Virus record (IMG/VR): IMGVR_UViG_3300009391_000094
Coordinates: 1 to 5,429 of that record
Length of the DNA stretch: 5,429 nt
Direction: 5' to 3' (one strand)
From: a virus
Shown here: positions 1,219 through 5,429 of the stretch, piece after piece
Position numbering within the stretch: the stretch's first letter is position 1
Layout: every line of letters starts with the position of its first letter
Notes under the pieces: generated by a model
Told to the model about the DNA's origin: nothing
Seen by the model: the letters and a program-made list of their open reading frames with translations, nothing else
Databases searched by the model: none
Made by a program: the position numbers and the translations under genes

Positions 1219-1878
1219 ATGATTTGGTTATATAGTGGTACACCTGGTAGTGGTAAGAGTTATCATGCAGTTTATAAAATTTATTATAGATTGAAACAAA
1301 AAAAATTTAATAGAGTAATTGCAAATTTTGAATTAAATTTCCCTGGTGATTTAGATAAAAATTTAACATATTGGGATAATTCCGAAGTTACCATTGATAA
1401 ATTAATTGAATTTGATAAAAAAAATCATGTTTCAATGATAGAGGGCCAAACTTTGGTTGTATTAGATGAAGCACAAATTCTTTTTAATTGCAGAGATTGG
1501 GGAACAAATTCTAAGCTTAGAATGTCTTGGATAAAGTTTTTTAGTCAGCATAGAAAATATCATTTCAATTTTATTTTAATTTGTCAATTTGATAAAATGA
1601 TTGATAAACAAATACGTTCTTTGGTCGAGTATGAAGTTTCACATATGAAAATGAATAATTTTTTTTGGTTTTTACCATTTTCATATTTTCTATGTATAGA
1701 AAGATGGTATGGCCAACGTATGAAAATATCGCATGAGATAATACGTTATACCAAGAAAATATCAAATTTTTATAATTCTTATAAGACATTTGATGATAAA
1801 AAAATTGATGATAAAACAAGCGAATTGGAGCAGAGGAGCGATAGCGAGGAATGCTCTAATTCGCTTGTTTCTATTTAA
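1219..1878 (+). CDS. Zot / pI-type P-loop NTPase, filamentous-phage assembly ATPase (219 aa)
   Basis: AGGAGG at 1206-1211. The N-terminal MIWLYSGTPGSGKSYHAV carries a Walker A motif (GxxGSGKS) at the extreme N-terminus, as in the Zot family. Walker B-like TLVVLDEAQ is present. A hydrophobic stretch FFWFLPFSYFLCI follows the NTPase core. Confidence 0.88.
   Translation: MIWLYSGTPGSGKSYHAVYKIYYRLKQKKFNRVIANFELNFPGDLDKNLTYWDNSEVTIDKLIEFDKKNHVSMIEGQTLVVLDEAQILFNCRDWGTNSKLRMSWIKFFSQHRKYHFNFILICQFDKMIDKQIRSLVEYEVSHMKMNNFFWFLPFSYFLCIERWYGQRMKISHEIIRYTKKISNFYNSYKTFDDKKIDDKTSELEQRSDSEECSNSLVSI
1814..1870 (+). other. Long hairpin (19-bp stem, 19-nt loop) inside the 3' end of the ATPase gene; candidate ssoA-like minus-strand origin, packaging signal or terminator
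   Basis: 1814-1832 pairs with 1852-1870 (18 Watson-Crick pairs plus one G-T at 1827/1857). The loop 1833-1851 is gaggagcgatagcgaggaa and contains TAGCGA (1842-1847) and a 17-nt perfect mirror repeat (1834-1850). This is the most GC-rich patch of the gene. T-rich sequence follows. Confidence 0.6.
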
Positions 1879-1919
1879 AATTATTTATAAAAATATTTAT
1901 AAAATATTAAAAAAACCTC

Positions 1920-1948
1920 TTGACACCTAGACGTCTATATGTTATAAT
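1920..1948 (+). promoter_or_regulatory. Consensus sigma-70/sigma-A promoter with extended -10 and an operator-like palindrome in the spacer
   Basis: TTGACA (1920-1925), a 17-nt spacer, then TATAAT (1943-1948), with TG at 1940-1941 (TGnTATAAT). An AT-rich tandem TATTTATAAAA repeat lies upstream (1882-1904). The 10-bp perfect palindrome TAGACGTCTA is at 1928-1937. Confidence 0.75.
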
Positions 1949-2677: not shown

Positions 2678-2810
2678 CCCTAAAAAAAAATAAAAAATCG
2701 TAAGACTATTGGAACCGATAAAACCCGCAGACGTACCGAAGTACTTTTGGAACGCGTAACTTAAAAAAAAGGTAAATAACTCTAACTTAACAAAAAAATT
2801 GAAATTTTGA

Positions 2811-2825
2811 GCGAGCTAGGCTCGC
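2811..2825 (+). other. GC-rich hairpin GCGAGC-tag-GCTCGC in the origin region
   Basis: A perfect 6-bp GC-rich stem with a 3-nt loop, about 40 bp upstream of the nick hairpin. No adjacent T-run on the + strand, so it is not a canonical terminator. Confidence 0.5.
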
Positions 2826-2864
2826 AAATGATGTATTTTTTAAAAAGGTTTTTAAATTTTTTTG

Positions 2865-2890
2865 TGGGGGGGAACTACGACACCCCCCCA
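2865..2890 (+). promoter_or_regulatory. Predicted double-strand origin (dso) nick hairpin of the pMV158 type
   Basis: T-G7 (2865-2872) pairs with C7-A (2883-2890). The 10-nt loop aACTACGACa resembles the remembered pMV158-family nick sequence TACTACG/AC followed by a C-run. The predicted nick is between G2879 and A2880 on the + strand. Confidence 0.7.
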
Positions 2891-2892
2891 TG

Positions 2893-2913
2893 TGTTCAGT
2901 GTTCACTGTTCAT
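2893..2913 (+). repeat. Three tandem 7-bp direct repeats TGTTCAN (candidate Rep-binding iterons)
   Basis: TGTTCAG (2893-2899), TGTTCAC (2900-2906) and TGTTCAT (2907-2913), starting 3 nt after the nick hairpin. Confidence 0.7.
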
Positions 2914-2977
2914 TGAATTGATTATTTTGGGTAATTAAAAACAGTAAATATTAAGAACTGTGAGGTAATTATATTAA

Positions 2978-3595
2978 ATGTCTGATAAAAAAGCAACAAC
3001 TAGAACTAGGAATTTTGCTACAGTAGTTTACTTGGATAGTGCTCCATCAGATTGGCAAGAAATATTACAGTCATTTTGTGTTCAATCTTTTATTTCTCCT
3101 TATCATGATAAAGATTTAAACCCTACTGGAGAGGTTAAAAAGTCTCATTATCATGTAATGATGATGTATGATACTGTTAAAACTATTGAACAGGCAACTG
3201 AAAATTTTAAAAAAATTGGTGGAGTTGGATGTGAAATAATAAATTCTACTAGAGGTTATGCAAGATATTTATGTCATTTGGACAACCCAGAAAAACAACA
3301 ATATTCTCAAGTTGATGTAAAATCTATTTGTGGTGCTGATTATGTTGGTATTATAGGTTTAGTGACAGATAAATACATAATAATGGGAGAAATGCAGGAC
3401 TTTTGTGAAAAATATAATGTAGTATCATTTTATTTACTTTGTAATTATGCTAGGAAAAATCGTTCTGATTGGTATAGGTCACTTTGTGATAATTCATCTT
3501 TTTATATGAAAGAGTATTTAAAATCTAAATTATGGTCACAAGATAGTAAAAATAATCAAATAATTGATTTAGAAACTGGCGAGGTTATAGGGTAG
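2978..3595 (+). CDS. repB: Rolling-circle replication initiator, HUH endonuclease of the pMV158 RepB (Rep_2) family (205 aa)
   Basis: GAGG at 2962-2965. By eye it aligns with RepB of pMV158: RNFATVVYLDSAPSDW vs RYFTFLLYPESIPSDW; ISPYHDKD vs ISPLHDKD (metal ligands); SHYHVMM vs AHYHVLY (HUH, His57/His59, codon 3146-3148 = His57); GYARYLCH vs MYLYLTH (catalytic Tyr candidate Tyr97, codon 3266-3268). Confidence 0.88.
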   Translation: MSDKKATTRTRNFATVVYLDSAPSDWQEILQSFCVQSFISPYHDKDLNPTGEVKKSHYHVMMMYDTVKTIEQATENFKKIGGVGCEIINSTRGYARYLCHLDNPEKQQYSQVDVKSICGADYVGIIGLVTDKYIIMGEMQDFCEKYNVVSFYLLCNYARKNRSDWYRSLCDNSSFYMKEYLKSKLWSQDSKNNQIIDLETGEVIG

Positions 3596-3613
3596 TTAAT
3601 ACTACCCTTTTTT
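3589..3613 (+). terminator. Intrinsic terminator for rep; the hairpin contains the stop codons of both convergent genes
   Basis: AGGGTAGT (3589-3596) pairs with ACTACCCT (3601-3608) around the loop taat, followed by T5 (3609-3613). The rep TAG is at 3593-3595 and the minus-strand gene stop is at 3602-3604. Confidence 0.7.
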
Positions 3614-3796
3614 GATATCATCAATGTCGATTTTTAAAATTTTAAGCATGTTTAAAAAAACATCAAAATTTTCAAGATGTTTTCCATTTATCCATCTACT
3701 AACAGTATTTACATTAATATTTAGCTTTTCTGCAAGCTCTTTAACTGTCAATTCGTTTTCCAACATAGCAATTTTAATTTTAATATGATTAATCAT
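3602..3796 (-). CDS. XRE / Cro-CI-type helix-turn-helix transcriptional regulator (64 aa)
   Basis: LTVKELAEKLNINVNTVSRWINGK is a classic HTH_3 motif. I place the start at ATG 3796-3794, because AAGGAG (3810-3805) lies 8 nt upstream of it. The GTG at 3805 used by the ORF track overlaps that Shine-Dalgarno. Confidence 0.85.
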   Translation of the reverse strand: MINHIKIKIAMLENELTVKELAEKLNINVNTVSRWINGKHLENFDVFLNMLKILKIDIDDIKKG

Positions 3797-3817
3797 ATTA
3801 TTCACTCCTTTAATTTA

Positions 3818-3865: not shown

Positions 3866-3880
3866 TAAAAATGTTTAAAA

Positions 3881-3918
3881 CAATACATAAATGTATTGAC
3901 ATATACATTTATGTATTG
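3881..3918. promoter_or_regulatory. Two operator-like palindromes sharing the half-site ATGTATTG
   Basis: CAATACAT-aa-ATGTATTG (3881-3898, perfect 8-bp arms) and ATATACAT-tt-ATGTATTG (3901-3918, 6 of 8 symmetric). Their centres are 20 bp apart. They cover the -35 and the spacer of the structural-operon promoter. Confidence 0.6.
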
Positions 3919-3924
3919 TATAAT
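3896..3924 (+). promoter_or_regulatory. Consensus promoter of the structural (virion) operon
   Basis: TTGACA (3896-3901), a 17-nt spacer, then TATAAT (3919-3924), about 30 nt upstream of the ATG at 3954. Confidence 0.75.
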
Positions 3925-4211: not shown

Positions 4212-4391
4212 ATGGAAACTTTAATAGACTATACATCATCATTTGCAGAAGTTAATAATTTGTTAGGTCAATTAATAACTTTACAAGCAAAATCAAATGT
4301 ATATTCTGAATGGATATTTGGTATAGAAGTTGCAATTTTCATTATTTCTATAGTTTTAATATTTGCAATATTCTTCTCCAATACAAGGTGA
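4212..4391 (+). CDS. Tiny membrane protein (59 aa), pVII/pIX-position minor coat candidate; not in the ORF track
   Basis: The ATG lies 4 nt after the upstream TAA, which suggests translational coupling; there is no clear SD. Product is METLIDYTSSFAEVNNLLGQLITLQAKSNVYSEWIFGIEVAIFIISIVLIFAIFFSNTR, with one C-terminal transmembrane segment. It ends at TGA 4389-4391. Confidence 0.5.
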   Translation: METLIDYTSSFAEVNNLLGQLITLQAKSNVYSEWIFGIEVAIFIISIVLIFAIFFSNTR

Positions 4392-4395
4392 TTTT

Positions 4396-4545
4396 ATGGA
4401 TTTACAAACAATTGAAACTTTAGCTAATTTCCATTGTCAACAAATTTTTAATGATGTTTCATTATCAATTTTAGAAATGTCATTTTTAATCGTAATTTTA
4501 TTATATTTTGCTTTGTTGGCTATGAGATTTCTTAAAGATATATAA
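4396..4545 (+). CDS. Tiny membrane protein (49 aa), pVII/pIX-position minor coat candidate
   Basis: AAGGTG at 4385-4390, 5 nt before ATG 4396. Product is MDLQTIETLANFHCQQIFNDVSLSILEMSFLIVILLYFALLAMRFLKDI, with one transmembrane segment and a basic tail. The ORF-track start at 4363 is a TTG with no SD and overlaps the previous gene. Confidence 0.55.
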   Translation: MDLQTIETLANFHCQQIFNDVSLSILEMSFLIVILLYFALLAMRFLKDI

Positions 4546-4781: not shown

Positions 4782-5429
4782 ATGTATAATAATAAATTTA
4801 TTTTAATTATCACAATTTTATTAATTATAAATTCAATAATAACACCTGTTTATGCTATTGATAATTCTTTTGCATCAGTTTTTGGAGGTAATGGTAAAGA
4901 GGCTCTAGCATTTATGACTGTAGTTACTGGTTTAGGATTAACTTTTGCTAGTCAATCAGATGCAGTTGCAGTTTATAACGAATTAAAAGAAACAGCTCCT
5001 TTAGTTATTCAAAATATGGTAGCTATAACAAAATCTACTTGGTTAGGTGCTTATAATACTGTTAGTAATGAATTAATTTCTGTAAAAAATTCTGTATATG
5101 ATTATTTATTAAGTAAGTTTGGAACTGTTACAAGTGGTTTAAATATATCACCGTCAACTAATATAAAAGGTAGTATTTTAGATGGTAATACTACTTCTTC
5201 ATTTGAAAATATTAGTACAGGAACATATTCACATTATAATAAATACGGTTCTATAAGAGCAACATTAACTAATTATAATGAAACACAATTAAAAATTACA
5301 TTAAATATTTTTACTAGTAAATCTTTAGATATATATACAGAAACATTTATTGTAAATAAAATAGCATTAGCTTCTTTTAGTTTAAGGATACATGAACAAA
5401 ATTCAGCTTATTGTATTTATGGTGGTCAA
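4782..5429 (+). CDS. N-terminal 216 codons of a pIII-like minor coat / host-adsorption protein; continues at base 128 after circular closure, 486 aa in total
   Basis: GGAGG at 4771-4775, 6 nt before ATG 4782. The frame stays open to the window end, which is why the ORF track omits it. The N-terminus MYNNKFILIITILLIINSIITPVYA/IDNS looks like a Sec signal peptide with an AXA-like cleavage site. It sits directly after the coat gene and its terminator, as gIII does in Ff. Confidence 0.65.
   Translation, partial: MYNNKFILIITILLIINSIITPVYAIDNSFASVFGGNGKEALAFMTVVTGLGLTFASQSDAVAVYNELKETAPLVIQNMVAITKSTWLGAYNTVSNELISVKNSVYDYLLSKFGTVTSGLNISPSTNIKGSILDGNTTSSFENISTGTYSHYNKYGSIRATLTNYNETQLKITLNIFTSKSLDIYTETFIVNKIALASFSLRIHEQNSAYCIYGGQ
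5303..5429. repeat. Terminal overlap copy 2 (circularisation signature)
   Basis: Identical to 1-127. The length of 127 nt is typical of a de Bruijn assembler k-mer overlap. Confidence 0.97.

Follow-up and report, generated by a model that had tools for sequence, protein, structure and literature searches.

The locus described here raises the question of which function is served by a long hairpin that is embedded in a protein-coding gene of a filamentous phage. The hairpin is situated at positions 1814-1870 of the IMG/VR virus record IMGVR_UViG_3300009391_000094, of which the whole 5,429 nt were analysed (hereafter the window), in the 3' end of the gene for the Zot/pI assembly ATPase (Table 1). 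The window is a circular genome of ~5.3 kb (the first 129 bases recur as a terminal repeat at 5301-5429) and is laid out like a filamentous phage (inovirus) of Gram-positive bacteria. A preliminary description, made from the sequence alone, proposed that the hairpin might be an ssoA-like minus-strand origin and/or a packaging signal, or that it simply terminates the operon. The analysis supports a hairpin that is functional, strand-specific and embedded in a dispensable tail of the ATPase gene, and it suggests a cis-acting signal on the viral (+) single-stranded DNA (ssDNA), most likely a signal for packaging and initiation of assembly corresponding to hairpin A of the Ff phages, a reading to which we give a probability of roughly 0.45.

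Reading of the sequence and folding agreed on the 19 base pairs, one of them G·T, and the 19 nt loop that had been described earlier. Folding of positions 1800-1885 as ssDNA, a comparison with shuffled sequences proposed in the preliminary description, gave -18.9 kcal/mol compared to -6.7 +/- 1.9 kcal/mol for the shuffles (z = -6.4, with 0/200 shuffles as good), and folding as RNA gave -33.9 kcal/mol (z = -7.2), while the fold of the minus strand is weaker (-16.5 kcal/mol). The hairpin is both the longest inverted repeat of the genome and its most stable 70 nt window, and the previously noted rise in G+C content is evident (46% for the hairpin, 58% for its loop and 26% for the genome). When the possible lower-stem extension is included the fold reaches -19.6 kcal/mol; the extension is weak. 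The loop does contain the reported TAGCGA (1842-1847) and the 17 nt mirror repeat AGGAGCGA-T-AGCGAGGA, the latter being a by-product of two GAGGA direct repeats around a palindromic GC...GC. It also harbours GCGNNAGC, of which the window has no other copy (0.10 expected). This is the "mini-hairpin DNA" motif of Hirao and colleagues, which is exceptionally stable through two G-C pairs and a sheared G·A pair (PMC13037366). A Shine-Dalgarno function of GAGGAG in the loop was considered and set aside, no open reading frame (ORF) being suitably placed.

The hairpin was said to lie inside the 3' end of the ATPase gene, and it indeed occupies codons 199-217 of 219, beyond the conserved domain and in a tail that appears dispensable. 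The Pfam Zot domain comprises residues 1-189 and protein conservation among 40 homologues ends at about residue 191 (YNSYxxFD), after which the tails of these homologues are unalignable, 0 to ~100 aa long and frequently rich in G/E/P/S. Two groups of relatives show what is retained in this region. In L081/L082 (locus handles are given as L numbers; 97% Zot identity) the hairpin differs at two positions only, a T to A change in the loop and a C to T change in the stem at 1862, the latter giving a G·T wobble that is tolerated on the + strand only. In L309/L310 (66% Zot identity) the 19 nt loop is identical except for the replacement of GCGATAGC by GCGTAAGC, while the stem is nearly all rewritten, with 8/19 pairs changed on both sides and 3 more altered on one side only but still paired. 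In the comparison of the window with L309, 98% of the cells are paired, a value matched by 0/500 shuffles, and in a slide control the paired fraction drops to 32-44%. The hairpin of L309 ends 75 nt before the Zot stop codon.

The only conserved residues of the Zot tail are QRSxSEEC, all of them encoded by the loop, and the constraint therefore acts on DNA or RNA and not on the protein. As judged from these comparisons the hairpin is under selection as nucleic acid. The preliminary description had tied its proposal to compensatory changes in relatives, and such changes are found here as well as family-wide (below). It is consequently hardly conceivable that the palindrome is a mere by-product of coding for an acidic, Ser-rich tail, or due to chance. 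The location inside an ORF and the lack of enrichment of TAGCGW by itself (2 in the window compared to 1.3 expected) would agree with this, but no shuffled sequence folds equally well, the stem codons vary freely while pairing is maintained, the conservation of the tail is confined to the residues encoded by the loop and the position of the hairpin is kept in 48/78 relatives.

Loci of relatives were obtained from IMG/VR, metagenomes, genomes and Logan/ENA contigs; when IMG/VR was scanned with the single Zot protein of the window no relatives were found, while an alignment-based scan recovered relatives. The exact Zot sequence of the window had no entry in the contig index, and the available relatives comprise 816 protein hits. 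With the Zot 3' end defined as the region from the end of the Zot domain to 150 nt past the stop codon, and hairpins ranked per 70 nt window, the strongest hairpin of the contig was located at the Zot 3' end in 48 of the 78 IMG/VR contigs, compared to 3.9 expected. The stems of the family consist of 15-35 pairs and are unrelated in sequence, and it is the apex that is conserved. In Type 1 the apex has the form GGGG(G)-N3-4-GGGGG-(A/T)-CCCC, e.g. ATGGGGGTAGGGGGTCCCCAT, and in Type 2 two G-runs are parted by an inner mini-hairpin, e.g. GGGGGAA-CCGCGTAGCGG-T-GGGAGCCC. The apex motif is retained even in the A+T-rich L104 (23% GC) as TTTGGGGGTTAGGGGGACCCAAA. Among 54 Type-1 members the stem flanking the apex contains 206 double-change cells compared to 115 +/- 9 in shuffles (0/500), with the peak of the slide control at 0, and a covariance model of the same members (R1) found one match per locus, 29/29 on the gene strand. 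The fold of the + strand is more stable than that of the minus strand in 84/96 cases (Wilcoxon p = 4e-12), and 182 G·T pairs are found compared to 20 A·C mismatches. These DNA hairpins, found where the assembly ATPase gene ends in filamentous phages of gut Firmicutes, form a widespread and apparently undescribed family. Searches of Rfam gave nothing relevant, neither for the window (E up to 10) nor for seven relatives (gathering threshold), and when IMG/VR was scanned with the pattern GGGGGNNGGGGGNCCCC for the apex outside inoviruses, mostly poly-G assembly artefacts and G+C-rich chance matches appeared, with Zot at two loci, both already known.

The hairpin of the window is a divergent subtype of this family, a membership that rests on position, architecture and intermediates. 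In its close relatives L181-L186 (64-70% Zot identity) the strongest hairpin starts no more than ~30 nt from the end of the Zot domain, and the inner mini-hairpin is shared with Type 2. Intermediates between the window and the family are found in L183 (GTGGGACGGGTAGCGAGGGCCCCAC), L181, L003 (GGGGGAGAGG-CTCCGCCATGCGGAG-AGGTG) and L001. A scan for the exact loop of the window type, GAGGAGCGNNAGCGAGGAA, gave four chance matches, 0 of them within a hairpin.

Unannotated hairpins are also present in two deposited phage genomes. In bajarodino virus 24 (L308, PQ006170) a hairpin with the Type-2 apex GGGGGGGACCGCGCAAGCGGTGGGGCCCC is located at 617-692 within the 287 aa Zot coding sequence, and in Clostridium phage CAK1 (L307, OX639564) a 75 nt hairpin is located at 6076-6150, at the end of CAK1_11. 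In many Type-1 hairpins (e.g. L021:1820-1864, L018, L039 and L056) an internal loop rich in purines interrupts the stem three pairs below the apex, with GGA or AGA facing GAA or GNA and the 3' side often repeating GAAGC, which may represent tandem sheared G·A pairs or an additional recognition feature. A further long hairpin, made from G-rich repeats, can be found 3' of zot in L001:2549-2650 (GGGGCTTGT x3) and L310:1360-1392 (TGGGGCTTGGGGAGGGG-TGC-CCCCTCCCCA). In L084, a prophage on a 208-kb contig (67% Zot identity), a hairpin with a G-rich apex is situated at 7051-7130, 350 nt past the zot stop codon, and a tRNA-like fold at 9511-9590, ~2.4 kb beyond that hairpin, may mark the integration site.

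When the replication genes of the relatives were compared, the hairpin was found to stay in or beside zot across four replication modules: RepB (the window, L081 and L001), Phage_CRI (L182, L184 and L186), a tyrosine integrase (L181 and L183) and REP_ORF2-G2P (L310). Unlike the hairpin, the double-strand origin (dso) travels with rep. The persistence of the hairpin across these four modules argues that it is not a Rep-specific origin, and its linkage to zot and the end of the morphogenesis module, which survives the exchange of replication modules, is a first reason to propose a role in packaging. A second reason is that it is a single hairpin, of the size of the signals of f1 (54 nt) and Ike (57 nt; bioRxiv 10.1101/2023.12.30.573655), and that, as in Ff, it immediately follows the final gene for morphogenesis. 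In CAK1, a Clostridium inovirus that has been cultured, the final morphogenesis gene likewise ends in a long hairpin. The third reason is given by precedent, since the packaging signals of Xanthomonas phages are sequence-specific hairpins within coding regions (bioRxiv 10.1101/2023.12.30.573655) and in Ff the protein pV leaves the packaging hairpin exposed, to be met by pVII/pIX at pI/pXI (PMC10175506).

From these features we infer both the packaging role and the likely binding partners. The + strand would, after rolling-circle synthesis, be coated by the ssDNA-binding protein of the phage, with the 19 bp stem remaining double-stranded and protruding from the coated strand. The apical loop would then display its two purine pentamers (GAGGA ... 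GAGGAA, or GGGGG ... GGGGG in most relatives), held apart by the rigid GCGNNAGC mini-hairpin, and the Zot ATPase and/or the small tip proteins may recognise this apex at the membrane, thereby setting the orientation and starting extrusion.

Shared with hairpin A of Ff (f1/M13/fd) and Ike are the location on the viral + strand, the form of one imperfect hairpin with a length of 54-57 nt, a position that directly follows the last morphogenesis gene and precedes the origins, a double-stranded state in the coated genome and orientation specificity. No sequence similarity is seen, however, and the hairpin of the window overlaps the reading frame of the ATPase and bears in its loop an apex that is conserved, rich in purines and contains a mini-hairpin. 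The phage infects a Gram-positive host and its genome lacks a secretin gene, and the function is a predicted one. The signals of the integrative Xanthomonas phages (phiLf-UK and relatives; bioRxiv 10.1101/2023.12.30.573655) share the location in coding regions; they are experimentally defined, have nucleotides that are both conserved and essential, and can be exchanged between related phages. They differ in being 20-26 nt long with the stem consensus GGX(A/-)CCG(C/T)G and C/T loops, and in being located in gII and not in the zot tail, with an orientation that was reported not to be critical.

Several observations weigh against packaging as the function. The Type-1 model R1 does not recognise the hairpin of the window (5.4 bits, E = 6.7), because the G-runs are replaced by GAGGA/GAGGAA and the closing GGGG/CCCC by GAGCA/TGCTC. 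The hairpin is located away from the zot end in L011, where it is flanked by the ssb-like gene and the structural genes, and in L019, and in L001 it adjoins the dso and is separated from zot by another long hairpin, an arrangement which, if read in the order of Ff, would make the family hairpin the minus origin. Conservation of the apex far exceeds that of the putative tip proteins, which share 37-49% identity in the window and L309, and similarity between the ssb genes of the window and L309 is undetectable, the former suggesting that recognition by a host factor or by Zot fits better than recognition by tip proteins. Furthermore, one copy on the + strand in the form of a hairpin is equally expected of a complementary-strand origin, and the GCGNNAGC mini-hairpin is best known at sites of priming by primase.

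These last points lead to the main alternative, possible if doubtful, a minus-strand origin that is not of the ssoA type. The hairpin would stay folded on the incoming or displaced + strand, coated by the single-stranded DNA-binding protein of the host, and a host enzyme would prime at or beside it, either DnaG primase as at oric of G4 or RNA polymerase as in M13; a packaging role would also be possible. Mini-hairpins of the GCGNNAGC or GCGNAGC type are found precisely where primase starts in G4 (GCGAAAGC) and in St-1/alpha3 (GCGTTAGC), and are present in ssiA of RSF1010 (PMC13037366). In the family 18/95 apices carry such a motif, L081 having the sequence of G4, GCGAAAGC, and L006 that of St-1/alpha3, GCGTTAGC, and the variants of the window (GCGATAGC), L081 and L309 (GCGTAAGC) differ only at the two N positions. 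Most family apices end with an invariant CCC(C), which is rare in these A+T-rich genomes, and DnaG of Clostridium difficile prefers to initiate at the trinucleotide 5'-CCC (PMC5204125). Conservation of the apex across very divergent phages with Clostridia hosts is what a site for a host factor would show. The hairpin is moreover situated immediately 5' of the dso, the usual place of a single-strand origin (sso), in L001, L182 and L186, and the compact L182, L184 and L185 have no other strong hairpin besides the dso and terminators.

On the other hand, known minus origins are larger and consist of several hairpins, and the unconstrained sequence of the stem leaves no promoter-like -35 and -10 boxes for RNA polymerase. 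CCC is base-paired in the predicted fold and missing from the window subtype, in which CTA (1857-1859 and 1871-1873) was considered as a replacing primase start and dropped since L309 lacks it, including the copy in the 3' arm. An origin would also leave the linkage to zot, and not to rep or the dso, unexplained, and a second conserved block beside the dso in the window and L081 could be the sso (below). The likeness to oric of the Microviridae G4, St-1 and alpha3 lies in the same 8 nt mini-hairpin at the tip of a hairpin on viral-strand ssDNA, identical in sequence in L081 and L006. The origins of these phages are described as having two or more hairpins (Hairpin I and others) and a defined site at which primase starts, compared to the single hairpin, without a conserved initiation trinucleotide in the window subtype, that is found here.

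Both roles might also be combined, so that one hairpin in a disposable ATPase tail would be packaging signal and primase-type origin through a previously undescribed motif, purine pentamers (GGGGG or GAGGA) flanking GCGNNAGC. We regard this as rather unlikely; if true, such a dual role would account for how little intergenic DNA Firmicutes inoviruses of ~5 kb need.

The pair of candidates put forward in the preliminary description, packaging signal and/or minus-strand origin, thus still stands, but the origin in its ssoA form does not. In a true ssoA of the pMV158/pT181 kind RNA polymerase binds the RSB element and the primer RNA ends at CS-6 in the loop, and it is very improbable that the hairpin works in this way. 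The features expected were taken from two secondary papers and are CS-6 with the sequence TAGCG(A/T) and RSB with the sequence TTTATGCCGAGAAAA (PMC6395029), together with a length of ~160 nt (PMC5703833). Replication by a RepB of the pMV158 family and a strand-specific hairpin with TAGCGA in its terminal loop would fit. TAGCGA is, however, the 3' half of the mini-hairpin region and its T is one of the variable N positions, L081 and L309 reading AAGCGA with the remaining loop invariant, and the CS-6 reading therefore fails; most apices of the family are G-rich and without TAGCG. The best match to RSB (GTTATACCAAGAAAA, 12/15, positions 1745-1759) is located on the same strand 83 nt 5' of TAGCGA. 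It lies outside the hairpin, encodes the conserved RYTKKI of Zot and is equalled within the window by 59/200 shuffles, and was judged coincidental. The length is 57 nt and reaches 93 nt if the weak A+T extension is counted, and the hairpin also accompanies replication modules other than RepB. Searches with blastn against 72,556 plasmids of PLSDB (pMV158, NC_010096, is not among them) gave no match across the hairpin, and those with the window hairpin and a Type-2 hairpin gave A+T-rich or G+C-rich noise only. Membership of the ssoA group was rejected as RSB, conservation of CS-6, length and plasmid similarity all fail.

A last possibility, that the hairpin acts in RNA as a terminator or a stabiliser of the 3' end of the mRNA of the morphogenesis operon, is distinctly unlikely. 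The stem is followed by TTGTTTCTATTT, and a transcript boundary would be expected here as a perfect promoter opens the next transcription unit 50 nt past the hairpin. The very stable RNA fold also agrees with this, as does the fact that all members of the family are on the transcribed strand, with GAAA and GUAA being GNRA tetraloops if transcribed. When the window was scanned for Rho-independent terminators no call was made, however, the loop being 19 nt and the tail CTATTTAAAA containing no clean T-run. Among 95 non-redundant hairpins of the family 49 are located wholly in the Zot ORF (that of L309 well before the stop codon), 36 extend across the stop codon and 10 are downstream of it, and a T-run follows only 7/95, which makes simple termination of the operon unlikely for the family. 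An invariant 19 nt loop or a conserved G-rich apex is also needless for a terminator, and the position in L011, between ssb-like and structural genes, does not fit.

Hairpin signals in general are already known in inoviruses, and what appears to be new is the family, its apex motif and the habitual overlap with the zot frame. In a limited search these were absent from Rfam and from the literature examined on Gram-positive inoviruses, and the papers examined on inoviruses of Enterocloster and Propionibacterium mention no hairpin, packaging signal or origin. The cis-acting signals of Gram-positive filamentous phages have so far been essentially unknown, and a hairpin family in >100 inoviruses of the gut and of anaerobes offers a concrete candidate for a packaging signal or minus origin. 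It is also a marker in sequence and structure by which such phages may be found and oriented in metagenomes, it explains the odd G/E/P/S-rich "tails" of annotated Zot proteins such as that of bajarodino virus 24, it could serve as minimal cis element for phagemids or transducing particles in Clostridia and it adds a further natural context for DNA mini-hairpins of the Hirao type.

Table 1. Positions of the hairpin, its parts and other features of the window (position 1 is the first letter of the window).
Feature	Position	Strand	Remarks
Zot/pI ATPase gene	1219-1878	+	219 aa
Zot C-terminal tail	1792-1878	+	Hypervariable; reads through the hairpin
Possible lower-stem extension	1796-1888	+	A+T-rich, 37 nt arms, 76% complementary; then T-rich
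5' arm of the hairpin	1814-1832	+	AAACAAGCGAATTGGAGCA; pairs with 1852-1870 in minimum free energy folds of ssDNA and RNA
Apical loop, 19 nt	1833-1851	+	GAGGAGCGATAGCGAGGAA = GAGGA-GCGATAGC-GAGGAA; two purine pentamers around the mini-hairpin
Mini-hairpin	1838-1845	+	GCGATAGC, matches GCGNNAGC; holds most of TAGCGA
3' arm of the hairpin	1852-1870	+	TGCTCTAATTCGCTTGTTT; pairs with the 5' arm
Sigma-70-type promoter, perfect	1920-1948	+	TTGACA-17-TATAAT with TG, 12/12 match; kept in L081
Conserved non-coding block	2678-2865	+	Recurs at L081:366-515
dso of RepB	2866-2915	+	G7/C7 hairpin with AACTACGACA in the loop, then three 7 nt iterons
RepB-type initiator gene	2978-3595		Rep_OBD and RepB_C domains (domain match)
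Helix-turn-helix (HTH) repressor gene	3602-3805	minus	Divergent
Second sigma-70-type promoter, perfect	3896-3924		
ssb-like gene and small hydrophobic ORFs			ssb-like gene of 84 aa; two small hydrophobic proteins encoded at 4212-4391 and 4396-4545
Coat, g3-like and g6-like genes			Coat 50 aa; g3-like large, crossing the circle junction; g6-like 85 aa

Relatives of the phage are found among Clostridia genomes and metagenome-assembled genomes and among inoviruses from rodent and lemur faeces, with Clostridium phage CAK1 as a distant relative, and a search with blastn against GenBank phages gave two weak matches to rep and nothing else. When analysing the region around the second perfect promoter, a perfect 17 nt palindrome (ACAATACATAAATGTAT / ATACATTTATGTATTGT, 3880-3919) was found to overlap it. 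With the divergent HTH repressor gene on one side and the structural operon on the other, the palindrome is probably the operator of this repressor.

The actual double-strand origin of RepB, of the pMV158 type, is located at 2866-2915, away from the hairpin at 1814. It consists of the hairpin GGGGGGG-AACTACGACA-CCCCCCC and the iterons GTGTTCA GTGTTCA CTGTTCA, 60 nt 5' of repB, and its loop resembles the nick sequence of pMV158. The hairpin core and the iteron layout are kept in L081, with an identical core, and in L001, where the sequence is GGGGGGG-CACTACGACA-CCCCC followed by TTATCCA x3. Directly upstream, ~150 nt of the non-coding block at 2678-2865 are conserved between the window and L081 despite differing flanking ORFs. 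The block contains the hairpin GCGAGC-TAG-GCTCGC (2812-2826) within a 15 nt A+T inverted repeat (2790-2804 / 2851-2865), the fold of 2780-2870 has z = -4.1, and in L081 the hairpin reads GCAAGC-TAG-GCTTGC, a compensatory change. The block is a candidate sso or regulatory element; of the two functions, sso and packaging signal, it may serve the one that the hairpin at 1814 does not carry.

In the relatives with a replication module of the Phage_CRI type, a small hairpin and a second hairpin are located between the Zot-tail hairpin and rep (L182:1040-1100 and L186:990-1050), and probably represent the nick site of the + origin and the binding site of Rep. The small hairpins, CGTCGGGG-TATAGTAAC-ACCCGACG and CGTAGGGG-TATAGTAGC-ACCCTACG, show compensatory changes in the stem, and with their loop GTATAGTA they are the likely position of the nick.

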